A DNA stretch of 64,000 bases from a virus (IMGVR_UViG_3300045988_167206:32001-96000), one strand, 5' to 3'; shown: positions 5,796 through 32,325, numbered from the stretch's first letter. The notes: generated by a model from the sequence alone, not told the origin. A program made the numbers and translations.

Positions 5796-6006
5796 TAATA
5801 TTTATTATTGTAGAAACGCTAATAACACATGTGAAAAAAGAGACACTTGCTTAAGATATCTTAATGCAGCAGATAATCCAACAGCTACATTATTTAAATG
5901 TGCATGCACATCAAATAATCAATATTTATTATACATTAATAAATCAAAAGAAACGGAGAGTGAAGATGGAAAAGAATCCGGAGATGACACAGAATCAACA
6001 GAATAA
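5788..6006 (+). CDS. Small Cys-rich hypothetical protein (72 aa)
   Basis: The ATG overlaps the upstream stop (ATGTATGA). Five Cys in a YYCxxxxxxCxxxxxC...CxC pattern and an acidic tail. It overlaps the next gene by 41 nt. Confidence 0.4.
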   Translation: MYDNIYYCRNANNTCEKRDTCLRYLNAADNPTATLFKCACTSNNQYLLYINKSKETESEDGKESGDDTESTE

Positions 6007-6565
6007 TCTTCCTGTAAAGTTTCTTGTTGTTGGCAGAACTGCTTCTGGAAAATCTTCAATTGTAAGAGAAGTATGTAAGAAACTTGAATTAAAACAGGTA
6101 AAAAGTCTAACAACAAGACCGCCACGAGATGTAGAGCTGAATAATCCTGATTCTGATCATTACTTTGTTACAGACGAAGAATTTGAATCTGAAAGAGACA
6201 AAGGATTTGTAGCTTACACTGAAATAAATGATTATAAATATGCTACAACGGTTGATGAGTTTGATAGATCAGATATTTATGTTATCGACCCAAAAGGTAT
6301 AGAATATCTTAAACAAACATGTGGTGATAAATATAAATTTGTCGAGATTTATATTCGAGTTCCATTTATAACTGCGATAAATAGATTTATTGAACGTGGT
6401 GGTATAGAGAGTGAATTTAAGGCAAGATTCAATCAGGAAAATTTACAATTTAAAGAATATGAAAAGAAACAAGGATTTGATTATCACGTATTAAATGATC
6501 AGGCATTAGAAGATGCGGTTGAAAAAGTATGCGAGATAATCAAAAAAAATAATTTGATAATGTAA
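5966..6565 (+). CDS. Guanylate kinase-like (d)NMP kinase
   Basis: P-loop GRTASGKSS, LTTRPPR motif and HYFVTDEEFE. Start moved to the internal ATG at 5966, preceded by GGAGAG. The longer ORF-track N-terminus looks non-coding. Confidence 0.75.
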   Translation: MEKNPEMTQNQQNNLPVKFLVVGRTASGKSSIVREVCKKLELKQVKSLTTRPPRDVELNNPDSDHYFVTDEEFESERDKGFVAYTEINDYKYATTVDEFDRSDIYVIDPKGIEYLKQTCGDKYKFVEIYIRVPFITAINRFIERGGIESEFKARFNQENLQFKEYEKKQGFDYHVLNDQALEDAVEKVCEIIKKNNLIM

Positions 6566-9934: not shown

Positions 9935-10096
9935 CCGCCAGTATTTGTATTTTTAGTAATCTGTGGAGCTGTTGCGGTATGGTTCCTTCTTTCGGGAATC
10001 TTTCAGCCTCTTGGAAGATTCCTTGGAAGGATCTGGAGTGACGCATGTGATGAAATAGAGAAAGAAAATAAAGAAGAAGACAAGGAGAACAAATAA
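9932..10096 (+). CDS. Small membrane protein (54 aa), not in the ORF track
   Basis: MPPVFVFLVICGAVAVWFLLSGIF... has one TM helix and an acidic/basic tail. RBS AAGGAGA. Its stop overlaps the next start (TAATG). Confidence 0.5.
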   Translation: MPPVFVFLVICGAVAVWFLLSGIFQPLGRFLGRIWSDACDEIEKENKEEDKENK

Positions 10097-11046
10097 TGAA
10101 GAATGGTAAATTAGGAGCAATTGGATTAGCAGTATTTATTATCGCAGGATTAATTTGTGTAAATAAATGTACGATTCGAGTGCCGGCTGGTTATGTAGCG
10201 GTCGAGTATAAACCTAACGGGGGAATTGCAAAAGAAGCATTAGGTCAGGGATGGCATATTATTTCTCCGACTATTAAAACATCACTTTATTCTATTGGAA
10301 TTGAACAGTCTTATCTTACATCTGAGGATAAAGGTGATTCACCGAAGGACGAAAGTTTCAAGACACCTACAGCAGATGGTAAACAGCTTCTTGTAGATCT
10401 TGAGTTTTCTTATAAGTTTGATCAGGATACAGTCTCTGACGTATTTACAAGATTTAAAGGGCAGTCTGGAGAAGCTGTAAAAAATACTTTTATTAAACCT
10501 AAAATGAAAGCTTGGACTCAGGAAGTAACTGCAAAATATCCTGTTACAGATGTTTTTGGAGACAAACGACAGGAACTGAACGAAGCCCTTGATGCATACT
10601 TAAAACAGAAATTTGAACCATACGGAATTATTATTGATACTGTAAACTTTACTTCCATTTCTACAGATGATGAAACTCAGGCAGCAATTCAGAAGAAAGT
10701 AAATGCACAGCAGGAACTTGAGCTTGCAAATATTGAAGCTAAGACAGCAAAAGTACAGGCTGATAAAGATAAAGAAGTAGCTCTTATTGCAGCGGAGCAG
10801 GATAAAGAGAAAGCCGCTATTCAGGCAGAGCAGGCAAAAATTACAGCACAAGGACAGGCTGAAGCTGTAAAAATTAAAGCTCAGGCAGAAGCTCAGGCGA
10901 ATAAAGAAATTGCAGAATCGCTTACTCCAGAACTGATTGAGAAGCAGAAGATTGACAAATGGAATGGTGAGGTTCCGAAAATCCAGGGTGGAGATGCTTC
11001 TACAATTGTTGATACCAAGGATATGACTGAGGACGCAGCAGAATAA
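10096..11046 (+). CDS. SPFH/band-7 (prohibitin/flotillin-like) membrane protein
   Basis: N-terminal TM (LGAIGLAVFIIAGLICV), an SPFH-like core (VPAGYVAVEYK...GWHIISP...DGKQLLVDLEFSYKF) and a C-terminal A/E/K/Q coiled coil. Confidence 0.8.
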   Translation: MKNGKLGAIGLAVFIIAGLICVNKCTIRVPAGYVAVEYKPNGGIAKEALGQGWHIISPTIKTSLYSIGIEQSYLTSEDKGDSPKDESFKTPTADGKQLLVDLEFSYKFDQDTVSDVFTRFKGQSGEAVKNTFIKPKMKAWTQEVTAKYPVTDVFGDKRQELNEALDAYLKQKFEPYGIIIDTVNFTSISTDDETQAAIQKKVNAQQELELANIEAKTAKVQADKDKEVALIAAEQDKEKAAIQAEQAKITAQGQAEAVKIKAQAEAQANKEIAESLTPELIEKQKIDKWNGEVPKIQGGDASTIVDTKDMTEDAAE

Positions 11047-11057
11047 TTTGAATTTGC

Positions 11058-11087
11058 CCTATGCACGACTTTAACATCGTGCATAGG
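11058..11087 (+). other. Perfect 11-bp stem hairpin without a U tract
   Basis: CCTATGCACGA, 8-nt loop, TCGTGCATAGG. It is followed directly by the RBS of the next gene. Possible RNA processing or stability element or weak attenuator. Confidence 0.4.
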
Positions 11088-11101
11088 AATTAGGAGAAAA
11101 T

Positions 11102-11509
11102 ATGACATTAGATGGAATTATTAAAACTCATAAAATATTTAAAGATAAACCATGGATCATATTGAAGAAGAGAGAGATTAATATTCCTTTTAAGAAGAAA
11201 TACATTGAAGTCTGTGAATATTATTATGACTTAGAAGACAGGCCGGAGTTCAATAACTGGATTGATGTTGAAGGTATTGGATATGGTTGGATGTGGTGTG
11301 CTAATAAACTTAGAAGTAAATTTGAATTTTTGCAGCGTAGAGCAGTTAAAAAATACGCTTTGGGTTTATTAAAAACGATCGATGATGATACAGACATGGT
11401 AGCTTTTTACTATAGAAATCTTTTTGTTTGTGGATTCATTCCTAAAGATAATCCAACGATTTATATTCAGATCAGATTGAGCAATGAAGAGTTACATTAT
11501 AGTTTTTGA
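11102..11509 (+). CDS. Hypothetical protein (135 aa)
   Basis: ORF with RBS AGGAGA. No recognisable motif. Confidence 0.65.
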   Translation: MTLDGIIKTHKIFKDKPWIILKKREINIPFKKKYIEVCEYYYDLEDRPEFNNWIDVEGIGYGWMWCANKLRSKFEFLQRRAVKKYALGLLKTIDDDTDMVAFYYRNLFVCGFIPKDNPTIYIQIRLSNEELHYSF

Positions 11510-11519
11510 GGTAGAAAAT

Positions 11520-11885
11520 ATGATTGTAGGAAAAATTGGAAAGTTTAATTCACATAAATGTAATAAATGTGGTAGCGACGTTATGTTTATAAAAGTAAAA
11601 GGAAATAACGTTGGATTATATTGTCATGAGTGTGGCACCTGGCAGAAATGGCTAAATAAAAGTGAAAGAAATCTATTTGAAGCCAGTCAAAATAGAACAA
11701 TTGAAGAGCGACTGAAAGACTTTATTGACGCAATTGAAAATAAAATTGATGTAGAAATGATGGAACTTCCAAAATCTGACGCAGATCAAATCAGAAAGAA
11801 TGCCTGCTGTTTAGCATTAGAACAATGTAAGACATCGCTTGAAAATATTTTGGCCGATAGGGAATTCAATGATTATGGGAAATAA
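11520..11885 (+). CDS. Zinc-ribbon protein (121 aa)
   Basis: CNKCGS..(17)..CHECG. Start set to the ATG at 11520, preceded by GAGG. Confidence 0.6.
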   Translation: MIVGKIGKFNSHKCNKCGSDVMFIKVKGNNVGLYCHECGTWQKWLNKSERNLFEASQNRTIEERLKDFIDAIENKIDVEMMELPKSDADQIRKNACCLALEQCKTSLENILADREFNDYGK

Positions 11886-11886
11886 G

Positions 11887-12588
11887 ATGGTTGAAGACAA
11901 AGTTTGTATTGTTTCTGCACCAAGTATATATGAGCCTTATGATTTGGTCGGAAGAATTGGGAAAATTATAAGGGCAGATATAACACTAAACAAAATAGTG
12001 TATGGAATAAAGCTTAATTGCGGATTAATAAATGCAGGAAGAGACGATGGATTATTTTACCTTAATAAAAATGATTTTTGTGTTATTTTTCCACCACAAA
12101 AACCATCTAGTCTTACAAATGATATTACATATGCAAATTTAAAAGAAGAAGAGGAGAGTAAAAATATGGCAGCATTAACAGGATTTAAAGCGGTAGCAGT
12201 AATTGAACAGGGTACAGGATATTATAAAAAAGATTATCATTATGCGATTTATGATGATGGAACAACATATATGCCAGGAGATAAAGTATATGTTTCTGGT
12301 ACTAGCAATACCTGTATTTTAAAAATTAAAGAAATTATTACGCCAAAAGAAGCTGCGGATAGATGTAAGAAAAATATTACCGCAGAGATTATTTGTAGAG
12401 TTAATACAGAAGCTTACGATACAAGGGTTAATCAGCGTAAAGAAGCTGCGGCTCTAAAAAAAGAAATGGATAAAATGATTAAACAAATGGACGAGACAAA
12501 GAAGTATGATATGTATGCAGCTGAAAACCCAGAATTAAAAGAAATGCTTGATAGATATAAAGAACTTAGAGGTGAGAAATATGAATAA
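11887..12588 (+). CDS. Hypothetical protein (233 aa)
   Basis: Start set to the ATG at 11887, just after the upstream stop. An internal in-frame GAGGAGAG-ATG at about 12163 could give a shorter product. Confidence 0.6.
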   Translation: MVEDKVCIVSAPSIYEPYDLVGRIGKIIRADITLNKIVYGIKLNCGLINAGRDDGLFYLNKNDFCVIFPPQKPSSLTNDITYANLKEEEESKNMAALTGFKAVAVIEQGTGYYKKDYHYAIYDDGTTYMPGDKVYVSGTSNTCILKIKEIITPKEAADRCKKNITAEIICRVNTEAYDTRVNQRKEAAALKKEMDKMIKQMDETKKYDMYAAENPELKEMLDRYKELRGEKYE

Positions 12589-12724
12589 AATAATCAAATT
12601 TATCATTTGTACTATATGCTACGCAGGGATATTAAGAATAGCTAATGTTGAGATTGCAAGTGCGGAATATTGGATTGTAGTAATATTATTAATTATTGAA
12701 AGTGTAGCGTGGGGTACATATTAA
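12581..12724 (+). CDS. Small hydrophobic protein (47 aa), not in the ORF track
   Basis: MNKIIKFIICTICYAGILRIANVEIASAEYWIVVILLIIESVAWGTY. RBS GAGGTGAG. Overlaps both neighbours, with TAATG at 12722-12726. Confidence 0.45.
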   Translation: MNKIIKFIICTICYAGILRIANVEIASAEYWIVVILLIIESVAWGTY

Positions 12725-13461
12725 TGATTTGGGTTACAGGTGATACTCATGGTGATTGGGTCCATAGATTAAATATGGATACCTTCCCGGAACAAAAAGA
12801 AATGACAAAAGAAGATTATGTGATTATCTGTGGTGACTTCGGAATTTGGAGAGATAGTGCCCAACAAAGATGGTATTTAAAATGGCTTGAAGAAAGAAAT
12901 TTTACCACACTATTTATAGACGGAAATCATAGTAACTTTGATGTACTTGATTCTTACCCGGTATCTGAATGGCATGGTGGAAAAGTACATTTTATAAATC
13001 CATCAGTAATTCATCTTATGAGAGGGCAAATATTTAATATAGAAGAAAAAATATTTTTTACTTTTGGTGGTGCTGCCAGTTACGATATTCAAGATGGAAT
13101 TCTTGAGATTGATGATCCAAGAATTAAATCCTGGAGAAAAGATCCATATAAAATGTATAGAGTCAACCATGTATCATGGTGGAAACAAGAGATGCCTGAC
13201 GAAGAAGAAATGGCTGAAGGAAGAGAGAATCTTGAATTAGCAGGTAATAAAGTGGATTTTGTTGTTACTCATTGTGCTCCATCATCTACTCAGGCCATAT
13301 TGAGCGGTGGATTTTATGAATCAGATAAGCTTACTAATTATTTGGAAACGATAAAATCTGGCATTGATTATAAAAGATGGTTTTTCGGCCATTATCATAT
13401 TAATCAAGCTGTTAGTGACAAAGACATTGCTCTATTTGAACAAATTGTGAGGATTAATTAA
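12724..13461 (+). CDS. Calcineurin-like metallophosphoesterase
   Basis: GDTHGD, CGDFG, DGNHSNFD, VTHCAP and GHYH motifs in the canonical order. Start set to the ATG at 12724, coupled to the upstream small ORF. Confidence 0.85.
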   Translation: MIWVTGDTHGDWVHRLNMDTFPEQKEMTKEDYVIICGDFGIWRDSAQQRWYLKWLEERNFTTLFIDGNHSNFDVLDSYPVSEWHGGKVHFINPSVIHLMRGQIFNIEEKIFFTFGGAASYDIQDGILEIDDPRIKSWRKDPYKMYRVNHVSWWKQEMPDEEEMAEGRENLELAGNKVDFVVTHCAPSSTQAILSGGFYESDKLTNYLETIKSGIDYKRWFFGHYHINQAVSDKDIALFEQIVRIN

Positions 13462-13613
13462 TTTATTATTAGTAAATAAGGAATTAAATAATCGAAAAGG
13501 ACACGCTTCATATAGACATAAAGGTGCTTATGGTCCAGCAGATAATTATTCAAAACATGATAAGCAGCAAGTTGAAGATGGAATACAGCAAATTAAAGAA
13601 TGGGAGAATGAAG

Positions 13614-14165
13614 ATGAAAGAAGAGAAAAAGAAGGTTCTGATTGTAATTGATGTGCAGAATGATTTTGTGACAGGAGTTCTTGGAACACCGGAAGCACAA
13701 GCTATTGTACCAAATGTGAAAAAGAAATTTGATGAATATAAGAATAATAAGAGCTATGTAATTCTTACAAAGGATACTCATCATTCAGATTACGCAGATA
13801 CTTCAGAGGGCAGAAAACTTCCTGAACATTGTATGTATGGTACTAAAGGTTGGGAAATTATTGATGAACTTGATTATAAAAATCTCGATAGTTTTATGGT
13901 GTGTTGTAAACCTACATTTGGACTTGATAACTGGGATTGGGAAGAAATATTTAATACTACAGATGATTCTTTATTAGATATTGAAATTATTGGAGTATGC
14001 ACAGATATCTGTGTGATTACAAATGCTCTTCTTATTAAAACTTATTATCCAGAGGCAAAAATCACAGTGGATGCATCATGTTGCGCAGGATCAACACTGG
14101 AAAAGCATAAAGCGGCTCTTGATGTGATGGAAAGTTGCCAGATTAATGTAACCAATAGAAATTAA
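13614..14165 (+). CDS. pncA: Isochorismatase-family cysteine hydrolase, nicotinamidase-like
   Basis: VLIVIDVQNDF, TKDTH and GVCTDICV (catalytic Cys context). Size of 183 aa fits from the ATG at 13614, which has GGGAGA 6 nt upstream. Confidence 0.7.
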   Translation: MKEEKKKVLIVIDVQNDFVTGVLGTPEAQAIVPNVKKKFDEYKNNKSYVILTKDTHHSDYADTSEGRKLPEHCMYGTKGWEIIDELDYKNLDSFMVCCKPTFGLDNWDWEEIFNTTDDSLLDIEIIGVCTDICVITNALLIKTYYPEAKITVDASCCAGSTLEKHKAALDVMESCQINVTNRN

Positions 14166-14188
14166 ATTAAACAATGGAGGAAATTAAA

Positions 14189-14797
14189 ATGATGAATAAT
14201 TTTATGAATGGAATGTTTGGGAAAATTGGTAGTGGAATGTGTAAGTTATCCATGAGCGGTAATATTGCAGTAAAAACTTCCAATGGATATAAGAGCTACA
14301 ATGTTAAATCCGGAAAGCTCACAAACTGTGGCAATTTCGTATTTCCTGGAGTAGATGAAAACTTCTTCTTCGTCATTCCAACAAATAAGGTAGCTAAAGG
14401 AGACATCATCCTTGTAAATGGCAAGCCAAAATGTGTTATTGAGGCAGACAAAACCAAGATCACTGTAATTAATTATGAAGATTCAACAATTGAAACAATT
14501 TTACCAGAACGTCACGTATTTATGGGTAATACATATTTTTATGGAAAAATTGTTTCAATGTTTGGAAGTAATTTTGGCAAAGACAAAAATAGTGCAAATA
14601 AAATTTTTAAATATATGATGATGACTCAGATGATGGGCGGATCTTCTACATCTGGCATTGGGATAGATAGTAATCCAATGAATGCCATGATGCCATTTAT
14701 GATGATGAATGGCAATATTGGAGACATGTTTGATGGCATGCTTGATTTTGATATGGATGACACAGATGAAGAGGTTGATTTAGAGGAGGATGAATAA
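14189..14797 (+). CDS. Met-rich protein with an acidic C-terminal tail (202 aa)
   Basis: Methionine clusters (MMNNFMNGMF, KYMMMTQMMGG, MNAMMPFMMMNGN) and a DFDMDDTDEEVDLEEDE tail. RBS GGAGG 7 nt upstream. Confidence 0.6.
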   Translation: MMNNFMNGMFGKIGSGMCKLSMSGNIAVKTSNGYKSYNVKSGKLTNCGNFVFPGVDENFFFVIPTNKVAKGDIILVNGKPKCVIEADKTKITVINYEDSTIETILPERHVFMGNTYFYGKIVSMFGSNFGKDKNSANKIFKYMMMTQMMGGSSTSGIGIDSNPMNAMMPFMMMNGNIGDMFDGMLDFDMDDTDEEVDLEEDE

Positions 14798-14799
14798 TT

Positions 14800-15696
14800 A
14801 TGGGATGTGGAAATTGGGATACTAAAAGTTTTGTATCTTATGCATCATCAAGAGGATTTGATACTGATACGCGAGGAGTAATCAGAGGAGATTATTCTAA
14901 TCAGGAAATGTTTAAAGCTAAAAAACTTGATCCTGCGCTTGATCCTAAAAATGCAATTAGAGAATGCTGCGATAGTGAAGAACATCCGAACACCTTGCCG
15001 GTTATTCTTGCTTTAGATGTTACTGGATCAATGGGGCAAACAGCAGTAGAAATTGCAAAAAAGCTTAATGAAATTATGACAAAATTATATGAACAAATCA
15101 ATGATGTGGAATTTATGATTATGGGTATTGGTGATCTGGCATATGATGTCTATCCAATTCAGGCCTCACAGTTTGAATCGGATATTAGAATTGCAGAGCA
15201 GCTTGACAAAATTTATTTTGAATTTGGTGGCGGTAGCAATCCATATGAATCCTATACCGCAGCTTGGTATTTTGCTTCTCGTCATACAGAACTCGATTGT
15301 TGGAATAGAGGCAAAAAAGGTGTAATTATCACGATTGGAGATGAACAGCTTAATCCATATCTTCCAATATCAGGCGAATATAATGGTTTGTCTACTGCTA
15401 CAGGTGATAATCTTCAATCAAATGTCGAGACAAAAGATTTATATCTGGAAGTTGCTAAAAAATTTGATGTTTATCATATTAATGTGGACCATCGTAATTA
15501 TTATAGTACTGAACAAGAAAATATTAAAAAGTCTTTTATGGAATATCTTGATGCAGATCATTTTAGAACAATTAATAACATTGATGACATTACAGATGAA
15601 ATTGTAAAAATTGTTACAGCTGCAAATAACGAACAAACAGTAGTACTACCGATAATTTCTGCAAAAACCGATGAATCGGGAGATATTGTTTGGTAA
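14800..15696 (+). CDS. von Willebrand factor A (vWA) domain protein
   Basis: MIDAS-like LDVTGSMG, a later GGGSNPYES and ITIGDEQ. RBS GAGGAGGA. Confidence 0.7.
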   Translation: MGCGNWDTKSFVSYASSRGFDTDTRGVIRGDYSNQEMFKAKKLDPALDPKNAIRECCDSEEHPNTLPVILALDVTGSMGQTAVEIAKKLNEIMTKLYEQINDVEFMIMGIGDLAYDVYPIQASQFESDIRIAEQLDKIYFEFGGGSNPYESYTAAWYFASRHTELDCWNRGKKGVIITIGDEQLNPYLPISGEYNGLSTATGDNLQSNVETKDLYLEVAKKFDVYHINVDHRNYYSTEQENIKKSFMEYLDADHFRTINNIDDITDEIVKIVTAANNEQTVVLPIISAKTDESGDIVW

Positions 15697-15705
15697 GGAG
15701 AAAAT

Positions 15706-16809
15706 ATGAAAGATATAAAAATTGTCATTGGAGCAAATTTCGGTGACGAGGGAAAGGGTAAACTTACAGATTATTATACTAAAGATAAAAATAATTGTAT
15801 TGTTGTTTGCTCAAATGGAGGAGCGCAGAGAGGACATACAGTATTGAAACCTAATGGGATACGTCATGTTTTTCATCATTTTGGTTCCGGGACATTAAAT
15901 GGAGCCGATACATATTTACCAGAGGATTTTATTTTAAATCCTCTGGTGTTTAAAGAAGAATGGGATGAATTAAAAAAAATGGGATTTGAACCGCATGTAT
16001 ATGCCAATAAAAAGTATATGATTACAAATCCTCTTGATATGATGGCTAATCAAATAATTGAAAGAAATCGCAAAGATAACAAACATGGTAGCTGCGGAAT
16101 GGGAATCTATAATACCATTCAAAGACATAAAAATGACATTATAGATTATTTGGATTCCTGGGCATATTATATGAATATGTTCAGAAGGATGAAAATTACT
16201 TTATCAGAAGAAGAAGCTGAATTATTCGACCAATATAAAAAAGGAAAAGAGATTCGTCTTCATTATTTTAAAGATTTGGATTTTATGATGGAACATATAA
16301 AAATTGTTCAGGATGATCAAATATTAAATAAATATGACACAATAGTATTCGAAAATGGCCAAGGATTGCTTCTCGATCAGAATAATATGGAATATTATCC
16401 ACATCTTACTCCGTCAAATACTGGTATAAAAAATCCTTCCAGGATTATAAAAGCAGTAAATTGGGACGCTGAAATTAACGTAGAGGCATGCTATGTAACC
16501 CGTTCATATATGACAAGACATGGAGCAGGTGCATTCCCAACTGAATGTAATAAGACAGAGATAAATACAGATATAACAGACTTAACTAATGTACCTAATC
16601 CACATCAGGACGTTTTAAGATATGGAACACTTGATGTAAATGAATTATACGATAGATGCCAAAGGGATGTAAAAGTCGCTGGCATTCCATGTCATAAAGT
16701 GTTAGCTATAACTCAAGTAAATGCATGTAAATCAATTATTCCATATATTTATAAAAAATTCAAAAAAAATAATTGGAATATAAAATTTTTTCATTTGGAG
16801 GAGAATTAA
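15706..16809 (+). CDS. Short (archaeal-size) adenylosuccinate synthetase family protein, PurA/PurZ-like
   Basis: GANFGDEGKGK P-loop, GGAQRGHTV (PurA has GGHNAGHT), FENGQGLLLD and TRHGAGAFPTE (PurA has TRVGxGPFPTE). 367 aa. Confidence 0.8.
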   Translation: MKDIKIVIGANFGDEGKGKLTDYYTKDKNNCIVVCSNGGAQRGHTVLKPNGIRHVFHHFGSGTLNGADTYLPEDFILNPLVFKEEWDELKKMGFEPHVYANKKYMITNPLDMMANQIIERNRKDNKHGSCGMGIYNTIQRHKNDIIDYLDSWAYYMNMFRRMKITLSEEEAELFDQYKKGKEIRLHYFKDLDFMMEHIKIVQDDQILNKYDTIVFENGQGLLLDQNNMEYYPHLTPSNTGIKNPSRIIKAVNWDAEINVEACYVTRSYMTRHGAGAFPTECNKTEINTDITDLTNVPNPHQDVLRYGTLDVNELYDRCQRDVKVAGIPCHKVLAITQVNACKSIIPYIYKKFKKNNWNIKFFHLEEN

Positions 16810-17063
16810 TGTATTTACATGATAGACTTATGGATTTATCTCAAAAAACAGAATGTATGGATGTAATATTACATAATGAGTTTAAAAATGATTATCCTTA
16901 TCGAGAAAATTTGCATGATGTAACATTTTTGATTGGCGAACTTATAGATATTTTACAACAATCAACTCTTACATATGATGATCTCATTCAATTAGAACAA
17001 CAATATAACGAAAGGTATGACAGCAAAATTAAACAAGAAAAAGATAATGAAATTATTTGGTAA
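16809..17063 (+). CDS. Hypothetical protein (84 aa)
   Basis: ATG coupled to the upstream stop (TAATG), preceded by GGAGGAG. Confidence 0.55.
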   Translation: MYLHDRLMDLSQKTECMDVILHNEFKNDYPYRENLHDVTFLIGELIDILQQSTLTYDDLIQLEQQYNERYDSKIKQEKDNEIIW

Positions 17064-17075
17064 AGGAGTCTACAT

Positions 17076-17894
17076 ATGATTAAGATTAATAATAATGTAT
17101 TTAAGCCAGAATATTTTCCGGATGGAACGATGAAATTAAAACTTGATGGAGATATAAATTATTGGATTTATTGGCTTTATGATTCAGAAGATGAATTACT
17201 CCAGCTTTATTACATTATGAATTATATTGATGAAAATCATGCACAATCAAGTACATCATTATTTATGCCATATATTCCAAATGCTAGATTTGACCGAACT
17301 AAAAATTATTATGAAATTTTTACCTTAAAATATTTCGCTAAATTTATTAATTATCTTCATTTTGATGAAGTGATAGTATTTGATCCTCATTCACATGTAT
17401 CCGAAGCGTTAATTGATAGGCTTTGCATTCATAACCCTTTAAATTCAATTATTAAAACCATTAAAAAGATTACAAATACATCAAAAGAGTTACTTTTATT
17501 TTTTCCAGATGAAGGAAGCACAAAAAGATATGAGAATGTAATTAAAACATATTCAGAATCTCCATATACTTTCGGTATTAAAAACAGGGATTGGGTCACA
17601 GGAGAGATTAAAGGATTATCTGTAAACGGACAAGTTGATCAGATCAAAGATAGAGACGTACTTATTATTGATGATATTTGCAGCAAAGGTGGCACGTTTT
17701 ATCACAGTGCTAAAAAACTTAAAGAACTTGGCGCGAATAAGATTTATCTTTATGTAAGTCATTGTGAAAATACAATTTATGCTGGAGAATTGCTTAAAGA
17801 TAACGGATTGATTGAAAAAATTTTCACTACAGATAGCATTTTAACAGATCTTACAAGTCCTAAAATTGAATTAGTAGAGGAGTGGAGAAAATAA
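17076..17894 (+). CDS. Ribose-phosphate pyrophosphokinase family protein (Prs-like, candidate ADP-ribose pyrophosphokinase Adps)
   Basis: PRPP-binding loop DVLIIDDICSKGGTF and FDPHS. At 272 aa it is shorter than housekeeping Prs. It lies next to a Nampt-family gene. Confidence 0.75.
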   Translation: MIKINNNVFKPEYFPDGTMKLKLDGDINYWIYWLYDSEDELLQLYYIMNYIDENHAQSSTSLFMPYIPNARFDRTKNYYEIFTLKYFAKFINYLHFDEVIVFDPHSHVSEALIDRLCIHNPLNSIIKTIKKITNTSKELLLFFPDEGSTKRYENVIKTYSESPYTFGIKNRDWVTGEIKGLSVNGQVDQIKDRDVLIIDDICSKGGTFYHSAKKLKELGANKIYLYVSHCENTIYAGELLKDNGLIEKIFTTDSILTDLTSPKIELVEEWRK

Positions 17895-18262
17895 TGAAAC
17901 CAATTATTAGTCCTTGGACGATTTATTTTGCCAGTAGAGTAGATTCTTTGAAAATTCTTGCTGGGTGTATTTTAGTATGTTGCATAATTGCGATATGCAT
18001 AGCATTCATTGAGGGCGATATAGACTACGGATCAGTATTAACTCATAGAAGTTTCATGAAGAAATGTGTAATAATATCTATTATCAGTGCGGTTGTTTTG
18101 GTAATCACGCCAAGTACAGAAACAGTTTATACAATGGTAGTAGCAAATGAAATTACACCAGACAATATTCAAGCATTTGGTAAAACTGGTAAGAATGTAG
18201 TTGATTACATTACAGATCAGATTGACAAAATTATAAATAAAGATGACGAAAAGGAGAAGTAG
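17894..18262 (+). CDS. Membrane protein (122 aa, two predicted TM helices)
   Basis: ILAGCILVCCIIAICIAFI and VIISIISAVVLVI. Start coupled by TAATG to the Prs-like stop. Confidence 0.6.
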   Translation: MKPIISPWTIYFASRVDSLKILAGCILVCCIIAICIAFIEGDIDYGSVLTHRSFMKKCVIISIISAVVLVITPSTETVYTMVVANEITPDNIQAFGKTGKNVVDYITDQIDKIINKDDEKEK

Positions 18263-18265
18263 AAT

Positions 18266-19732
18266 ATGTACGATACATTAGCGATTTTATTATGCGACAC
18301 TTATAAAACATGCCATAACCGAATGTTTCCTAATAAACTTACAAAATTAGTATCTTATTGGACTCCAAGAAGATCTATGTTGAAATATCAAGATCATATG
18401 GTATTCTTTGGACTTCAAGCATTTATTAAAAAGTTTCTGATCGAAGATTTTAATAAAAATTTCTTTGATTTACCAGAAAGTGCAGTAATGTATGAATACT
18501 CCTACACAATGAATACGCAGTTAAAACCAGGAGATTACGATATTGGGCCAATCATTGAATTACATAGATTAGGATTTCTTCCTATTCAGATTCGTGCATT
18601 ACCGGAAGGAACACTGGTTCCAATGGGAGTTCCTTGTATTGAAATCTTTAATACAAAACCAGAATTTGCATGGGTAGTCCAGTGGATTGAGTGTATTCTG
18701 CAGGTGGAACTTTGGAAACCATGTTGTCATGCGACAATCGGGCATATGTATAGGGAATCTGCAAATTATTGGTATAAAAGAACAGTTGATAATGTAAAAC
18801 CATCAATGGCCGCCTCTGACTTTGGAATGAGAGGAATGTCTTGTATGGAAGAAGCAGAAAGATGCTCCGCTGCTTGGTTGCTTTCGTTTGATAAAACATC
18901 CACAATTCCAGCAATCGATTATATTTATAATTATTATTCTACGAACTGTCAAAAACTCAATATTGGACTTGGAGCAGTAAGTACAGAACATTCTGTAATG
19001 GCTTCAAATTTTGCAGTAGACGGTGACGAAATTACATTTGTAAAACGATTACTTACAGAATTATATCCAAATACTTCATTTAGTATGGTTTCTGATACCT
19101 ATGATTATTGGAATATGATCGATAATATTCTTCCGGCCTGCAAAGAAGAAATTATGAATCACAATGGTAAATTGCTTGTAAGACCAGATTCTGGAAATAT
19201 GGTTGATATCTCAGTAAAGACAGTAAAAAAACTTTGGGATATATTTGGTGGGACTATTAATAGTAAAGGTTATAAAGTACTCGATCCACATATTGGTATT
19301 ATTTATGGCGATGGTTGTAGCTTATACAATGTGAACGAGATTTGGAGTTTACTCGCAGATGAAAGATTTGCAGCAAATAATATTGTATTTGGTGTCGGAG
19401 CCTTTTGTTTCTCGGCAATTGTTGAGGGTGACGGTCATATGGCAGTAGTTACCAGAGATACATTTGGAATTGCAATGAAAGCCACATATGGTGTCGTGGA
19501 TGAAAAACCTATTATGATTTATAAAGATCCCAAAACAGATACTTCTCATCTTAAAAAATCCCATAAAGGTTGTTGCAAAATTTATCGTGATCAGAGCGGA
19601 GAATTAATCTGTGAAGATGGTTTTGATAAGCCACAGCATGGAGAGTTGCATATTGTATATTGCAATGGCGATATTATTGAAGAAGAAACATTTGAGGATA
19701 TTCGTAGAAGATTAAATACTCAGGAGAATTAA
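18266..19732 (+). CDS. Nicotinamide phosphoribosyltransferase family protein (Nampt/NadV-like, candidate Namat)
   Basis: FGMRGMS, VSDTYDYW, VRPDSGN and IIYGDG. 488 aa, typical for the family. Confidence 0.85.
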   Translation: MYDTLAILLCDTYKTCHNRMFPNKLTKLVSYWTPRRSMLKYQDHMVFFGLQAFIKKFLIEDFNKNFFDLPESAVMYEYSYTMNTQLKPGDYDIGPIIELHRLGFLPIQIRALPEGTLVPMGVPCIEIFNTKPEFAWVVQWIECILQVELWKPCCHATIGHMYRESANYWYKRTVDNVKPSMAASDFGMRGMSCMEEAERCSAAWLLSFDKTSTIPAIDYIYNYYSTNCQKLNIGLGAVSTEHSVMASNFAVDGDEITFVKRLLTELYPNTSFSMVSDTYDYWNMIDNILPACKEEIMNHNGKLLVRPDSGNMVDISVKTVKKLWDIFGGTINSKGYKVLDPHIGIIYGDGCSLYNVNEIWSLLADERFAANNIVFGVGAFCFSAIVEGDGHMAVVTRDTFGIAMKATYGVVDEKPIMIYKDPKTDTSHLKKSHKGCCKIYRDQSGELICEDGFDKPQHGELHIVYCNGDIIEEETFEDIRRRLNTQEN

Positions 19733-19734
19733 AT

Positions 19735-20172
19735 ATGAATAAATCAATGATTTATAAAAGAAATGTATATATGAGCAGAGACTCAAAAGATGTTGAAGAA
19801 ATGTTCAGTGAAATTTTAAATAATTATGAAGAAAAAGAAGAAACGATTAAGTATCTTCGGGAAGAAAATAAAAGAATTAAAGATGAAAAATATAAGGATT
19901 CTGAACTAACTTCTATGAAAAGAGAACTTGAAGGTGTAAAAGGAGACTTATATAGAGGATTTCCGATTTCAATAAAAGAAAAAAAAGCTATCGAAGAATG
20001 GCGATTAAAACATGAAGCTGAGGCTCACGGAAGAAAAACACTTGAACAAAGGTTATCGGCACACGGAGCAATTGGCGGCAGTTACACTTATGTTTTCACG
20101 CCGACAAGCATTGGTGTTGTTGGCGAGTTTAAGTGTAGTTGTGGCGAATCATTTACATTTCAAGATATTTAA
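19735..20172 (+). CDS. Hypothetical protein (145 aa), coiled-coil N-terminus and Cys-containing C-terminus
   Basis: ORF with RBS AGGAGA. C-terminal GAIGGSYTYVFTPTSIGVVGEFKCSCGESF. Confidence 0.6.
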   Translation: MNKSMIYKRNVYMSRDSKDVEEMFSEILNNYEEKEETIKYLREENKRIKDEKYKDSELTSMKRELEGVKGDLYRGFPISIKEKKAIEEWRLKHEAEAHGRKTLEQRLSAHGAIGGSYTYVFTPTSIGVVGEFKCSCGESFTFQDI

Positions 20173-20184
20173 TAAGGGGTATTT

Positions 20185-20952
20185 ATGACATTAAAAGAGA
20201 TTAAAGAAAAAATAAGGACAGATCCGGCATACGGGTTTCTTCGTACAGATCCTCATCTTGGAGATAATATCTGTCTTCTTTATTTAAGCGGTAGTTATGC
20301 TTACGGAACAAATGTTGAAGATAGTGATATTGATCTTCGTGGGGTTACTTTAAATAGCAAAGAAGAAATTCTTCTTGGACAGGATTTTAGAAGTGTTACA
20401 GATGGAAGTACCGATACAACAATTTATTCATTTAAAAGAATGGTCAAAATGCTTTGTAGTAATACTCCAACTGCTATTGAGATATTTGGTCTTAAACCGG
20501 AACATATTTTATACGCTAATTCAATAGGAAAAGAATTGTTGACTAAGCAAAATATGTTTCTTACAAAAAGAGTCGCTTCTGCTTTCAAAGGATATATTCA
20601 GGCTAGTTTAAAATTGCTTGAATCAGAAAAATGCCTAAATGATAAAACTATGATGTCCAAATATATGGTTCATCCATTTCGATTGTATTTTATGATTATT
20701 GATATTTTAACTGATCGGACAATAACGACATATCGTGAAGAAGAACACGAAATACTTATGGATATTCGTAATGGAAAATGGCTTGAAAATAATAAACCTT
20801 CTAATGATTATATGAATTTTATAAGAAATTATAACAGAGTGATTCCATTTCTTCTTAAAGAAAAAAGTAATCTTCCAGAAGATTTAAATTTGTGTAACAT
20901 TGATGATTATGTGATAGCAGTACATGAAAAAATTGTCAAAGGAGAAATTTAA
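20185..20952 (+). CDS. Pol-beta superfamily nucleotidyltransferase (PF10127/RlaP-like)
   Basis: LSGSYAYGTNVEDSDIDLRGV matches the GS-x9-12-D-x-D nucleotidyltransferase signature as laid out in that family. Confidence 0.65.
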   Translation: MTLKEIKEKIRTDPAYGFLRTDPHLGDNICLLYLSGSYAYGTNVEDSDIDLRGVTLNSKEEILLGQDFRSVTDGSTDTTIYSFKRMVKMLCSNTPTAIEIFGLKPEHILYANSIGKELLTKQNMFLTKRVASAFKGYIQASLKLLESEKCLNDKTMMSKYMVHPFRLYFMIIDILTDRTITTYREEEHEILMDIRNGKWLENNKPSNDYMNFIRNYNRVIPFLLKEKSNLPEDLNLCNIDDYVIAVHEKIVKGEI

Positions 20953-21045
20953 TGATTAAAGTAATCAATGGAAGCATTTTAAATGCTAAAACAGATTTTA
21001 TTATTATTACAAGGAAAACTCAGTACCAAAAGAGGAGGAATAAAT

Positions 21046-21402
21046 ATGGATATTATTTATTTTGAGCTTAATAACTGGTTTTGTGGTAGAGATTATCCAA
21101 ATGATGAGCCATTTATTTCATGGATGAGTAATGATTTACAATTAAAATTCGATAACGAAGATTGGATTATTGAAAATAAATTATGTGTAGTAAAAACATT
21201 TGTAGACATGTCTTGTAATTTCTGTATTACTGCCACAAAGGAATGGGTAGAAGAGAATTGTCCTAAATTACTTACAGAATATAATGAGTTTTTAAGATAT
21301 CCTGATAAATATGGAGATACTTATGGAAAATTTGGAACATTATTTTTGGAATATTGTGTAGAAAATATTGGGTTGGAAGATAGAGAAGAAGATGATATTT
21401 AA
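21046..21402 (+). CDS. Hypothetical protein (118 aa)
   Basis: Start set to the ATG at 21046 behind AGAGGAGGA. The longer ORF-track N-terminus lacks an RBS. Confidence 0.6.
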   Translation: MDIIYFELNNWFCGRDYPNDEPFISWMSNDLQLKFDNEDWIIENKLCVVKTFVDMSCNFCITATKEWVEENCPKLLTEYNEFLRYPDKYGDTYGKFGTLFLEYCVENIGLEDREEDDI

Positions 21403-21418
21403 TGAAAGGATATAAGAT

Positions 21419-22174
21419 ATGAATTATTATTTTGATGCTAAAAAAGTAAAAGATGATTGCGTACAGTGGATTAGAGATTATTTTACAAAGAATGGACTAG
21501 ATTGCAATGCAATTGTTGGAATTTCTGGAGGAAAAGATTCTTCTGTTGTGGCTGCACTTTGCGCAGAAGCACTTGGAAAAGATAGGGTTATTGGTATTCT
21601 AATGCCACAGGGAATACAGTCTGATATTGGATATGCTCAAGAACTTTGTGCCGAACTTGATATTGAGAATTATACTATTAATATTGAATCTGCTTATAAA
21701 GCAATTAGAAATCAAGTAAAAGAGACTCTTAATGGGCATTGGAGCCAGCAGAGTGCCATTAATTTACCGGCAAGATTAAGAATGAGCATATTATATGCTT
21801 ATGCACAGACATTAAATGGAAGAGTGGCAAATACATGTAATCTTAGTGAAGATTGGGTAGGATATGCAACACGATACGGAGACTCTGCAGGAGATTTTAG
21901 TCCGCTTGCAAACTTTACAGTTGAAGAAGTAAAAGCTATTGGTAGAGAATTAGGTCTGAATGAGCTTTTAATTGAAAAAGTGCCAACAGATGGTCTTTGC
22001 GGTAAAACAGACGAAGATAACCTTGGTTTTACATATGCAGTTCTTGATAGATATATTAGAACTGGTAAAATTGACGATTTGGAAACCAAGAAGAAAATTG
22101 ATTATCTTCATGAAAAAAATGCGTTTAAGTTAAGATCAATGCCTACATTCAAATATCCACCTTGTCCATTTTAA
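21419..22174 (+). CDS. nadE: NH3-dependent NAD+ synthetase
   Basis: PP-loop GISGGKDSSV, then LPARLRMSILYAYA, GYATRYGD, PLANFTVEEV and VPTDGL...DEDNLGFTY. Confidence 0.9.
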   Translation: MNYYFDAKKVKDDCVQWIRDYFTKNGLDCNAIVGISGGKDSSVVAALCAEALGKDRVIGILMPQGIQSDIGYAQELCAELDIENYTINIESAYKAIRNQVKETLNGHWSQQSAINLPARLRMSILYAYAQTLNGRVANTCNLSEDWVGYATRYGDSAGDFSPLANFTVEEVKAIGRELGLNELLIEKVPTDGLCGKTDEDNLGFTYAVLDRYIRTGKIDDLETKKKIDYLHEKNAFKLRSMPTFKYPPCPF

Positions 22175-22671: not shown

Positions 22672-23325
22672 ATGAATAAAGAAGATATTGTAGTATTATT
22701 TATTATATTAATTTTTATTGGATTCTTTTGTATGTATTTAATGGCGGCACGTATTTGGAAAGATATAGATAAAGAGATAGAAGAAGACAAACAAAGGAGA
22801 ATACATATGGCAAAACGAGTAGCAAAGTTCGAAAAAGTATCAAAACAGCAGTTTATTCAGGACTGGCAGCATGAATTTATGGGATCTGAAGAATGGGCTG
22901 GATTTATCTATGATCGAATTAAATTACCAGCAAGAGCAACAAAATTTTCAGCAGGATATGATTTCTTTGCACCAATGGACTTTACACTGAACCCGGGAGA
23001 AACTGTCAAGATCCCTACCGGTATCCGTTGTGGAATCAATACAGACTGGGTATTAATGATTTATCCTCGAAGCGGCCTTGGCTTTAAATATAGAGAAATG
23101 CTTGCAAATACAGTTGGAGTAGTAGATAGCGATTATTTTTATTCAGACAATGAAGGCCATATTTTTATCAAAGTTGTAAATGCCGGAGATAAAACACTTC
23201 ATATTGAAAGCGGGAATGGTTTTGCACAGGGGATTTTTACTGAATATGGTATCACAGAAGATGATCATGTTGAAGCAGAACGAAACGGTGGATTCGGAAG
23301 TACAGATAAAAAGGAACTTAAATAA
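22672..23325 (+). CDS. dut: dUTPase, with an in-frame 45-aa N-terminal TM extension (alternative start 22807)
   Basis: The five trimeric dUTPase motifs: AGYDF, IPTGI, PRSGLG, GVVDSDY and ERNGGFGSTD. An internal ATG at 22807 follows AAAGGAGA. Upstream codons encode IVVLFIILIFIGFFCMYLMAA. Confidence 0.85.
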   Translation: MNKEDIVVLFIILIFIGFFCMYLMAARIWKDIDKEIEEDKQRRIHMAKRVAKFEKVSKQQFIQDWQHEFMGSEEWAGFIYDRIKLPARATKFSAGYDFFAPMDFTLNPGETVKIPTGIRCGINTDWVLMIYPRSGLGFKYREMLANTVGVVDSDYFYSDNEGHIFIKVVNAGDKTLHIESGNGFAQGIFTEYGITEDDHVEAERNGGFGSTDKKELK

Positions 23326-24096: not shown

Positions 24097-25269
24097 ATGG
24101 GAAAAGATTTAAAAGGTAAAGAACTTGGAAAGGGGATTACACAAAGAAAAGATGGTAGATATCAAGCAAGATTTACTAATCGTTTTGGAAAAAGACAGAC
24201 GATATATGGTAAAACACTTAAAGAAATTAAAAATGCATTACATGAAGAAACTATAAAAGATTTACGAGAAGAAAATGTAAAAAATATTAAATTAACAGTA
24301 GATGAATGGTTTGAAATATGGTCCAAAACATATAAGGAAACTACAATTAAAAAAACTACATTTGCTAAAAATAAAAGAAATTATCAACATCAAATTAAAC
24401 CAGTTATAGGGAATAAAAAAGTCTCCGAAGTAACATCATTTGATATTGTTTCTTTAACCAGTAACATGGCAAAAAAATATACAAAAGGTTTTATAAGAGA
24501 TGTACATGGTATTTTATATGATATGTTCGAACAAGCGTACATAAATGAGCTATGCAAAAAAAATCCTGTTTATGGAACTAAATTTGGTGGAAAACCAAAT
24601 AGAAAAATACAAGCATTAAATATTGAAGATCAAAGTGAATTTTTAAAATCAAGTAAAGATAATTTTTATTATAATGCGTTTGTTGTACAATTAAATACCG
24701 GTTTAAGACTTGGAGAAATCATAGGTTTATGTGTTGAAGATATTGATTTAAAAAATAATATGCTTCATGTTAGACATAATATGATTATGGTTAGGAAAGA
24801 TGGAGATATTCCATCTTATTTAGAAATAAGTACACCAAAAACGAATGCTGGAATTAGAGATGTTCCAATAAATAAAGCATGTAGAAAAGCTTTGATCAAT
24901 CAACTTGAAATGCGATCTAATGTTATTTTTCCACATAAATTTCATCAATTAGTATTTTTTAGTAAAGATAATTTTTTACCAATAAGCCGATCAACATATT
25001 ATCGAAACATTAATAGTGTTGTTAAGAAAATTAATATTAAAAGAGCAAAAAATAATCAACCTCTTATAAAACAGTTTGGATCACATACTTTTAGACATAC
25101 ATTTGCAACGAGATGTTTTGAAGCTGGTATTCCACCTAAAACAGTACAGGTTTTACTAGGACATGCCAGCATACAAATGACATTAGATATTTATACATCT
25201 GTAATGCAAGATAAACGGGTTGAAGACTTAAAAAAATTTGACACTTTGATGGACACGTTATGTTTATAA
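24097..25269 (+). CDS. int: Tyrosine recombinase (phage integrase) with an N-terminal arm-type DNA-binding domain
   Basis: N-terminus GITQRKDGRYQARFTNRFGKRQTIYG (AP2-like arm binder). Catalytic signatures TGLRLGEI, HTFRHTFAT and LLGHASIQMTLDIYTS. Confidence 0.92.
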   Translation: MGKDLKGKELGKGITQRKDGRYQARFTNRFGKRQTIYGKTLKEIKNALHEETIKDLREENVKNIKLTVDEWFEIWSKTYKETTIKKTTFAKNKRNYQHQIKPVIGNKKVSEVTSFDIVSLTSNMAKKYTKGFIRDVHGILYDMFEQAYINELCKKNPVYGTKFGGKPNRKIQALNIEDQSEFLKSSKDNFYYNAFVVQLNTGLRLGEIIGLCVEDIDLKNNMLHVRHNMIMVRKDGDIPSYLEISTPKTNAGIRDVPINKACRKALINQLEMRSNVIFPHKFHQLVFFSKDNFLPISRSTYYRNINSVVKKINIKRAKNNQPLIKQFGSHTFRHTFATRCFEAGIPPKTVQVLLGHASIQMTLDIYTSVMQDKRVEDLKKFDTLMDTLCL

Positions 25270-32281: not shown

Positions 32282-32325
32282 TTTACACCTCCTCATTTAT
32301 TCAAAAAATTGTATTCATTAACATT

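Follow-up and report, generated by a model that had tools for sequence, protein, structure and literature searches.

Nicotinamidase and NAD+ Synthetase Genes Accompany an Adps–Namat Pair in Gut Phages: A Possible Deamidated Variant of NAD+ Reconstitution Pathway 1

The stretch of DNA designated IMGVR_UViG_3300045988_167206:32001-96000, 64,000 nucleotides in length and called the window below, is phage DNA. Its plus-strand half encodes a DNA polymerase, a helicase/exonuclease, thymidylate synthase, guanylate kinase, ribonucleotide reductase, dUTPase and an integrase, and its minus-strand half a lysin and tail genes. A cluster of genes related to NAD+ metabolism lies inside the replication and nucleotide-metabolism module, among the genes for DNA polymerase, ribonucleotide reductase, thymidylate synthase, guanylate kinase and dUTPase. 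An initial annotation singled out three open reading frames (ORFs) of this cluster and read them as NAD+ reconstitution pathway 1 (NARP1) with a membrane protein set between its two enzymes. NARP1 consists of Adps and Namat, and is known from Bacillus phage SpβL1, E. coli phage Bas63, phage FADO and Vibrio phage ICP1 (Osterman et al., 2024).

Inspection of the three ORFs confirmed their existence, coordinates, plus-strand orientation, motifs and coupling. The first, at 17076-17894 (+), encodes a putative Adps-like ADP-ribose pyrophosphokinase of 272 amino acids (aa) that contains DVLIIDDICSKGGTF and matches phrog_619 (E 4e-69). Its TAA stop codon overlaps the ATG of the second ORF as TAATG (AAATAATGAAAC), with GGAG 8 nt upstream; this second ORF, at 17894-18262 (+), encodes a 122-aa protein with two transmembrane (TM) segments (phrog_3878, E 1.4e-16). 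The third, at 18266-19732 (+), encodes an S-type Namat-like transferase of 488 aa (phrog_448, E 2.5e-159; Pfam NAPRTase and NAMPT_N) with the Nampt-family motifs DFGMRG, VSDTYD, RPDSGN and YGDG. As observed, however, the set was incomplete, for two genes on the same strand had been overlooked. A PncA-like nicotinamidase is encoded at 13608-14165 (+), with 185 aa counted from the ATG at 13608 (the mechanically called ORF begins with GTG at 13524), and NadE, a single-domain NH3-dependent NAD+ synthetase of 251 aa, at 21419-22174 (+) (Pfam NAD_synthase, 183 bits). No terminator-like sites were found on the plus strand between 12.5 and 24.2 kb.

As had been supposed, the Prs-like protein groups with the validated Adps enzymes and not with housekeeping Prs. 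In phmmer comparisons it scored 149 bits against SpβL1 Adps, 147 against FADO Adps and 87 against ICP1 Adps, compared with 46 against E. coli Prs. It falls below all curated Prs cutoffs: TIGR01251 gave 101 bits against a cutoff of 113, the equivalog models were far below theirs, Pfam Pribosyl_synth gave 25.8 against a threshold of 27, and Pribosyltran_N did not match. In alignments two parts of Prs are missing from it, as they are from the Adps enzymes: the βα unit at the N-terminus and the α11-α12 module at the C-terminus. It keeps the catalytic Lys185 of ICP1 together with the acceptor-site Asp and His residues His121, Asp161 and Asp212/213. Both its PP loop (DDIC-SK-GGTF) and its hairpin (KxR...TGEI) are of the very variants that occur in Adps enzymes partnering canonical Namat. 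The truncations, the PP loop and the remodelled hairpin were described as features of validated Adps in a study of Adps structure (PMC13586617). Adps genes are rarely found apart from their partner, 97% of the clade standing immediately beside a Namat-family gene (Osterman et al., 2024). In the window adps, which ends at 17894, and namat, which begins at 18266, are adjacent and co-oriented, with the 122-aa cargo ORF between them.

The Nampt-like protein is likewise nearer to Namat than to Nampt enzymes that use phosphoribosyl pyrophosphate (PRPP), in agreement with the initial annotation. Its best match in the PDB was SpβL1 Namat (9W5X/9W5W) with 377 bits, compared with about 184 bits for human Nampt; 9KE8, a D-type enzyme with no aromatic residue at motif position 3, gave 309 bits. 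Identity to validated Namat is 41-43%. The catalytic core is kept in the window protein as D11, Y13, F186, R189, H242, R306 and D308, equivalent to Asp13', Tyr15', Phe189, Arg192, His245, Arg306 and Asp308 of SpβL1 Namat. The model for nicotinate phosphoribosyltransferases of the PncB family, TIGR01513, gave only 20.9 bits against a cutoff of 297.

The absence of an NMN adenylyltransferase (NMNAT) from the window was borne out. No (H/T)xGH nucleotidyltransferase motif occurs in its six frames, no CTP_transf_like domain was matched in Pfam scans of nearly all window ORFs of at least 130 aa (two giant ORFs left out), and no NadD-type motif or domain was found within the 64 kb. No adenylyltransferase for NMN or nicotinate mononucleotide (NaMN) was found in any of the loci collected for comparison. 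The sole nucleotidyltransferase in the window, at 20185-20952 (+), is of the Pol-beta/RlaP type (Pfam RlaP, 47 bits), which is not an NMNAT family; it was considered as a stand-in for NMNAT and rejected as a core component, as it is missing from the compact operons described below. The lack of an NMNAT and the homology to the Adps and Namat side exclude for the window a NARP2 pathway of the kind found in Vibrio phage KVP40. NARP2 also rebuilds NAD+ with a Nampt-family transferase, but it needs PRPP and a bifunctional NMNAT and has no Adps, whereas the window encodes Adps together with an enzyme nearer to Namat, and no NMNAT.

The active site of the Namat-like protein is altered. Namat has been described as a Nampt-like core with an adenine selectivity clamp, formed by the SCH motif GSXΦXΦXΦTRD and by the SCL, whose third residue, Arg, Lys or Tyr, provides the adenine-stacking residue (PMC12774641). 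In SpβL1 Namat the amide of nicotinamide is hydrogen-bonded by Asp215, and the change of this residue to Ala cuts activity about 8-fold (PMC12774641). In the window protein Ser212 replaces Asp215, in an ungapped alignment with invariant flanks (SF..T.T.P). Ser239 stands in place of Ala242, Gly187 in place of Ser190, and Gly350 in place of Ala362. The adenine-stacking Arg40 of the SCL is replaced by Met38 (PRRSMLK), the Arg being retained in one sublineage of relatives (L002), and a 12-residue loop of SpβL1 Namat is missing. The SCH of the window protein, G378-AFCFS[AIVEGDGHMA]VVTR-D398, has 21 residues, compared with 11 in SpβL1 (GSFTYQYNTRD); a 10-residue insertion shifts motif position 7, while positions 3 and 5 still hold Phe.

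Asp215 of SpβL1 Namat is the equivalent of Asp219 in human NAMPT, a residue that determines substrate specificity; D219S (Khan et al., 2006) is listed as switching substrate affinity (PMC7096376; PMC4919578), and D219A inactivates the human enzyme (PMC4919578). The position, the Asp-to-Ser change and the fold are the same in the two proteins. The human substitution was engineered in a PRPP-using enzyme, whereas that in the phage is natural, fixed across a large clade, and joined by both another Ser and an insertion in a loop. Replacement of a carboxylate by one or two hydroxyls is what would be expected of a pocket that binds the carboxylate of nicotinate instead of an amide.

The two genes that had been overlooked look functional. 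The PncA-like protein matches Pfam Isochorismatase with 80 bits, and its best PDB match is the pyrazinamidase/nicotinamidase of P. horikoshii (1ILW/1IM5). Its catalytic triad of Asp, Lys and Cys and its DxH...HC metal site align to 1IM5, within the motifs IVIDVQNDF at residue 12, DTHH...LPEHC at 56 and GVCTDICV at 129. The metal site is kept in nearly all homologues of the clade, some of which have one extra residue before the same His-Cys. The assignment depends on these residues and not on a curated score, because the protein scores only 31 bits with the nicotinamidase equivalog model of NCBIfam, for which the cutoff is 174. NadE exceeds its own cutoff (TIGR00552, 181 bits vs 63.65) and carries the PP-loop motif SGGKDSS; SGGxDS is present in all 55 NadE proteins of the clade. 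Its best PDB matches, at about 117 bits, are the short NadE enzymes 2E18, 3FIU and 3P52. Short single-domain NadE enzymes are by default specific for nicotinate adenine dinucleotide, or deamido-NAD (NaAD) (PMC3376133).

On balance, the Adps-like and Namat-like proteins probably form the core of a deamidated variant of NARP1 with four enzymes. The sequence of reactions would begin when NAD+ is cleaved by a host NADase (TIR, SIR2 or the like), which releases ADP-ribose (ADPR) together with nicotinamide. The PncA-like enzyme would convert nicotinamide to nicotinate and NH3, and the Adps homologue would convert ADPR and ATP to ADP-ribose pyrophosphate (ADPR-PP) and AMP. The S-type Namat-like enzyme would then join nicotinate and ADPR-PP to form NaAD and pyrophosphate, and the phage NadE would produce NAD+ from NaAD, ATP and NH3; neither an NMN nor a NaMN adenylyltransferase would be needed. 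Use of nicotinate would account both for the obligatory presence of NadE and for a nicotinamide-destroying enzyme in a phage. Each of these catalytic activities is a prediction, as are the specificity for nicotinate, the choice of ADPR-PP over PRPP and the part played in counter-defence. The fuller proposal is about as likely as not: the S-type protein would be a new nicotinate ADP-ribose transferase which, with nicotinamidase, Adps and NadE, forms a fourth, deamidated reconstitution pathway that bypasses NaMN and any adenylyltransferase, and temperate phages that infect Clostridia of the human gut would carry this pathway in abundance.

The evidence that carries this proposal comes from comparison of loci. 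Viral contigs supplied 66 close relatives, and diverse environments 80 SpβL1-like Namat loci; to these were added the references SpβL1, FADO and a Bacteroides crAss-like phage, and 8 loci from bacterial genomes or metagenome-assembled genomes (MAGs). Of 148 that were classified, 83 were D/E-type and 65 S/A-type, and each was scored for diagnostic residues and neighbours; for NadE and PncA the S/A-type denominators count those loci whose flank reaches 6 kb or more. Position 215 in SpβL1 numbering is Ser or Ala in all 65 loci of the clade. Position 242 is Ser in the S/A-type and Ala in the D/E-type, and the SCH has 20-21 residues in the former and 11 in 82 of the 83 D/E-type loci. NadE was found downstream in 44/44 S/A-type loci compared with 0/67 of the D/E-type, and a PncA-like gene upstream in 54/54 compared with 0/68. 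An Adps homologue lies upstream of the Namat-family gene, within the available flank, in both types (57/57 S/A-type and 76/76 D/E-type loci). In a database of 5.8 billion proteins, the 120 best matches all had Ser215 and an SCH of 20-21 residues, and 118 of them had Ser242.

The linkage extends to bacterial genomes and to different gene arrangements. All eight genome-derived loci are S/A-type; NadE adjoins Namat in the seven with downstream sequence, and PncA is present in four of the five with upstream sequence. Compact PncA-Adps-Namat-NadE operons occur at three loci (L051, L153, L158), and independent gene calls with precomputed Pfam matches gave the order Isochorismatase ... Pribosyltran - NAMPT ... 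NAD_synthase, as well as Adps-Namat-NadE-NrtR-like. Roughly 8-10 sublineages, with identities as low as 46% and with differing backbones and gene orders, make up the S/A class. D/E-type loci from the same human-gut dataset have neither NadE nor PncA, so environment does not explain the association of residues with genes. In one sublineage (L002, L155, L156), where position 215 is Ala, Ser190 and Arg40 remain as in canonical Namat and TRD is directly preceded by an aromatic residue; its state seems to lie between canonical Namat and the S-type.

Could the window nevertheless encode ordinary NARP1, in which nicotinamide and ADPR-PP give NAD+ directly? PncA and NadE would then be mere neighbours, auxiliary metabolic genes that boost deamidated salvage by the host in parallel, and the Asp-to-Ser change would be neutral or would broaden specificity. 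Ordinary NARP1 was the initial annotation, and much of it stands: the Adps and Namat homologues are adjacent, co-oriented and phage-borne, the catalytic Lys, PP loop and hairpin of the Adps partner are intact, the core of Namat is fully kept, including the phospho-His, at 41-43% identity to a validated Namat, and NMNAT is absent. The human D219S enzyme reportedly retains some activity with nicotinamide while gaining the use of nicotinate, and many S/A-type loci share ancestry, so that their linkage could partly reflect descent. What does not stand is the equation with plain NARP1. In the pocket and clamp Asp215 and Ala242 have become Ser and Arg40 has become Met, the SCH has gained 9-10 residues and a 12-residue loop is deleted; positions 215 and 242 change together, and always with the SCH insertion. 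The roughly 8-fold drop in activity of SpβL1 Asp215Ala also argues against a neutral change. In gene content the window type is obligatorily accompanied by PncA and NadE, as are 0 of about 67 canonical loci, and the NadE association is perfect in both directions and across sublineages, tight operons included. A phage nicotinamidase would, moreover, destroy the very substrate of a nicotinamide-specific Namat. The product predicted for the window type is NaAD and that of NARP1 is NAD+. The homologies, the substitutions and the strict linkage of the four genes are matters of observation. We consider ordinary NARP1 quite unlikely here.

Several points weigh against the deamidated pathway. The association has a raw Fisher test p of ~5e-32, a value that ignores kinship; independence is exaggerated in it, since at 70% identity a single sublineage accounts for 53 of the 58 full-length viral-contig sequences. 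In one genome-derived locus (L157) there is no PncA within 9 kb upstream. The effect of substitution at position 215 must be context-dependent, as D219A inactivates human NAMPT yet the L002, L155 and L156 loci carry Ala. A preference for ADPR-PP is not assured by the sequence, because the clamp motif, by which canonical Namat enforces that preference, is disrupted by the 10-residue insertion and Arg40 is now Met. An AlphaFold2 model built with 27 close homologues had a mean pLDDT (predicted local distance difference test) of 62.9, with active-site segments below 50, and is unfit for inspection of the pocket; the activities of the S-type enzymes are read from sequence. The window NadE is as similar to 3FIU, which we take to be the NaMN-preferring NadE of Francisella, as to ordinary short NadE enzymes, so a preference for NaMN is possible. 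Finally, the proposed route is the costlier one, with an extra ATP and an obligatory deamidation followed by re-amidation. As a matter of speculation, the cost might be repaid if charged nicotinate were trapped in the cell, or if the route matched hosts of the Preiss-Handler type.

The disrupted clamp bears on the identity of the ribosyl donor. A Preiss-Handler route by way of PRPP would have the Prs-like protein act as a true PRPP synthase and the S-type enzyme make NaMN from nicotinate supplied by PncA; host NadD would follow and the phage NadE would finish, with ADPR no substrate at all. PncA and NadE are indeed the classical first and last enzymes of that pathway (PncA, PncB, NadD, NadE) with its deamidated intermediates, clusters of pncB, nadD and nadE have been reported in gut jumbo phages (PMC11662467), Asp-to-Ser would account equally for nicotinate use, and SpβL1 Namat can use PRPP in vitro. 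The jumbo-phage clusters encode NadD, however, whereas the window has neither NadD nor a PncB-family enzyme, and its S-type protein derives from the side of Namat and not from Nampt or PncB; with Adps it would bypass NaMN. The Prs-like protein groups with validated Adps in score, PP loop, hairpin and truncations, and SpβL1 Adps yielded no product in a ribose-5-phosphate control. PRPP is abundant in the host, and in a published survey the phage Nampts that use it came from phages without a Prs or Adps homologue. The intact Adps signature and the presence of Adps in 57/57 S/A-type loci therefore argue for ADPR-PP as the donor, and the Preiss-Handler route is in our view unlikely.

ADPR as the starting compound is also indicated by two kinds of neighbouring gene. 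A macro-domain gene occurs in 37/41 S/A-type loci, compared with 6/55 of the D/E-type; it lies inside the cluster, often abutting NadE, and its product matches the ADPR-1''-phosphate phosphatase Poa1p (36 bits) and the macro domain of DarG (38.6 bits) about equally. None was found in the window. The gene recalls NARP1-AP of Vibrio phage Gary, in which Adps and Namat flank the macro-domain phosphatase Adpp (bioRxiv 10.64898/2026.01.28.702374), but NARP1-AP is without PncA and NadE and uses nicotinamide. The second neighbour is an NrtR-like regulator (NUDIX and WHD_NrtR; L243:2997-3878), found directly after Adps-Namat-NadE in one operon and followed by a bacterial-looking GGDEF/EAL gene; this copy of the S-type operon may be chromosomal and regulated. 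NrtR responds to ADP-ribose.

The resemblance of the window NadE to 3FIU (117.3 bits, as close as to any solved NadE, both proteins being short and single-domain) allows one further scheme, similar to that of Francisella: NaMN would be formed from nicotinate and PRPP, the NadE homologue would act as an NMN synthetase, and a host NMN adenylyltransferase would complete NAD+. This would require an NMNAT, of which the window has none, and the arguments for the identity of Adps apply to it in full. Adaptation to NMN synthesis is documented only where NadM replaces NadD, and the short NadE of M. jannaschii was without the activity (PMC3376133). We regard the scheme as highly improbable.

With the chemistry of the deamidated pathway granted, its purpose might still be a general supply of NAD+ for a large phage, or recycling of ADPR, and not counter-defence. 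The position of the cluster within the replication and nucleotide-metabolism module would suit such a role, bacterial copies of NARP1 of unassigned role exist, and one S-type operon has the NrtR-like regulator and bacterial-looking neighbour mentioned above. ADPR and nicotinamide, on the other hand, reach useful levels mainly after NADase attack, and canonical NARP1 has been found in experiments to counter Thoeris, DSR1/2, SIR2-HerA and SEFIR. The macro or Adpp-like accessory is a known answer to aRES defence. In contigs of 238-261 kb (L240:1924-2361 and L241:3572-4801) a gene of the anti-Gabija family Gad2 (Pfam) lies, together with IS605 OrfB/TnpB, 4-6 kb upstream of the S-type cluster, which suggests an anti-defence neighbourhood. 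Homology to NARP1, the Adpp-like accessory and the Gad2-family gene near some relatives favour counter-defence, and a general supply role, although the best placed of the alternatives, seems rather unlikely.

In the literature on NARP1, NARP1-AP, RyDEP, NARP3 and the structures of Namat and Adps, we found nothing that links NARP1 to NadE, nicotinamidase, nicotinate or NaAD; this coverage is incomplete, and the result is absence of evidence only. The paper on gut jumbo phages describes only conventional pncB-nadD-nadE clusters (PMC11662467). A nicotinate-type variant of NARP1 is provisionally taken to be undescribed. Its absence may be due to the makeup of the cultured phages: these reach at most ~42.5% identity to the window Namat, and each of the three whose loci were compared (SpβL1, FADO and a Bacteroides Kolpuevirus phage) is D/E-type. 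The closest Namat among 50,697 deposited phage records, with 52% identity, is on an unannotated metagenomic contig.

The relatives of the window are mostly viral contigs of 100-180 kb from human-gut metagenomes; others are loci in MAGs of Lachnospiraceae, Acutalibacteraceae and Clostridium, and one is a prophage of the isolated strain Ruminococcus sp. AM36-2AA (QTYB01000001.1). The integrase of the window, at 24097-25269 (+), is of the Tn916 type. S-type Namat is represented by at least 120 clusters of proteins, and in some of these the members number in the thousands.

Depletion of NAD+ is among the commonest antiviral strategies of bacteria, and the three described phage reconstitution pathways all proceed through amidated intermediates. 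If the deamidated pathway is correct, it would involve a previously unknown reaction, the formation of NaAD from nicotinate and ADPR-PP, and a single pocket substitution known from the engineering of human NAMPT would have re-routed a counter-defence pathway in nature. It would also extend the biology of these pathways to phages of gut Clostridia, which are missing from the cultured-phage sets by which NARP1 was defined. For annotation, the loci can be recognized by Ser or Ala at 215, Ser at 242, an SCH of 20-21 residues and a nearby NadE; current tools would call them plain NARP1 or 'nicotinate phosphoribosyltransferase'. As the cluster includes a predicted nicotinamidase that is borne by prophages, it may also have a bearing on niacin and nicotinamide metabolism in the gut.

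The two-TM ORF between adps and namat had been taken for a conserved-looking gene outside the described pathway. It is outside the pathway, but it is not a conserved, pathway-linked gene. Its hydrophobic segments span residues about 17-42 and 56-76, and alignment of the phrog_3878 family shows the two TM segments followed by a well-conserved soluble C-terminal tail; no Pfam, NCBIfam or PADLOC model matched above threshold. Co-occurrence with homologous loci was inconsistent: the family is present in 42/57 S/A-type loci, in 0, 1 or 2 copies per locus, and in 0/76 of the D/E-type. The adps-namat junction of S/A-type loci (L003-L065) is a hypervariable slot that holds zero to about four unrelated small genes. 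These include one or two genes of the TM family, a different 129-aa membrane protein, an HNH/AP2-like ORF of 232 aa, a radical-SAM-like ORF of 317 aa and small Zn-ribbon-like proteins; in compact operons the slot is empty.

Members of the TM family also occur elsewhere. Among 78 further loci 33 had no Adps or Namat within 6 kb, and the closest relatives of the window protein (89% identity) are away from these genes, while the flanking enzymes reach at most 79%. In one phage contig a second copy, which is divergent, lies about 30 kb away from the cluster (L236 vs L003/L228). When the 6.5-kb region was compared by megablast with deposited phages, the TM gene alone matched. A one-off insertion, as suggested by MT835469.1, was rejected because wider synteny shows recurrence in the slot. 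A component of the pathway, such as a transporter, was rejected as well: the gene is missing from compact operons and replaceable by unrelated genes, copies lie elsewhere in the same genomes, and the protein has only two TM segments and no family annotation. From the variable slot, the 33 loci away from Adps and Namat and the second copy, the ORF is mobile, exchangeable accessory cargo and not a step of the pathway.

Other genes have entered the unit in the lineage of the window. Between PncA and Adps, at 14174-17063 (+), there are four lineage-specific ORFs outside the core pathway: a 207-aa unknown protein (14174-14797, +), a phrog_2971 protein (14800-15696, +), a PurA/PurZ-like synthetase (15706-16809, +) and a small ORF (about 16809-17063, +). 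This insert is confined to the main sublineage and is missing in the compact operons, where PncA abuts Adps. Between Namat and NadE, at 19735-21402 (+), three further lineage-specific ORFs, also not core, encode a coiled-coil/Zn-ribbon-like protein of 145 aa (h145; 19735-20172, +), the RlaP-type nucleotidyltransferase and a 139-aa unknown protein (h139; 20983-21402, +). They are missing from compact operons in which NadE abuts Namat (L051, L055, L153, L155, L157-L159, L243). The lineage has accumulated within the unit the phrog_2971, PurA/PurZ-like, TM, h145, RlaP-type nucleotidyltransferase and h139 genes. Just upstream of PncA is a calcineurin-like metallophosphoesterase (phrog_1649; 12709-13461, +), which was considered as a core recycler of ADPR cyclic phosphate and rejected, being found only in the main sublineage (28/52 S/A-type loci).

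A longer form of the S-type Namat occurs among relatives. ORFs of 646-649 aa are present in six loci (L006, at 9998-11938, L007, L010, L015, L016 and L024) and in the protein clusters P0005-P0008, P0012-P0014, P0016, P0017, P0022 and P0026. They have a C-terminal extension of ~155 aa with a DVDGVL motif typical of HAD-family phosphatases. The Pfam HAD matches to the extension are faint (E 0.07-0.09), and one such cluster has 2,406 member sequences. The long form may be a fusion of Namat with a phosphatase.

Some other genes of the window may be mentioned. The PurA/PurZ-like synthetase matches phrog_1211, '2-aminooxy adenylosuccinate synthetase' (3e-75), and guanylate kinase, thymidylate synthase and dUTPase are encoded at 5864-6565, 5025-5795 and 22672-23325, respectively; together these could point to DNA containing 2-aminoadenine (Z-base). 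The NCBIfam PurZ model gave only 39 bits for the synthetase (cutoff 300), and its PDB matches are ordinary PurA. A tubulin/TubZ-like GTPase (35950-37005, −) adjoins a DUF6017 protein (35174-35941, −); with the integrase, in a large temperate phage, the pair is reminiscent of the segregation systems of plasmid-prophages. Two tail-region proteins (30302-32296, −, and 32493-34814, −) have weak N-terminal matches, below the Pfam cutoff, to Mtd_N (major tropism determinant). The early region encodes an SPFH/Band-7 protein (10096-11046, +), and the structural region contains two giant ORFs of 2,437 and 2,763 aa (40020-47333, −, and 54838-63129, −).

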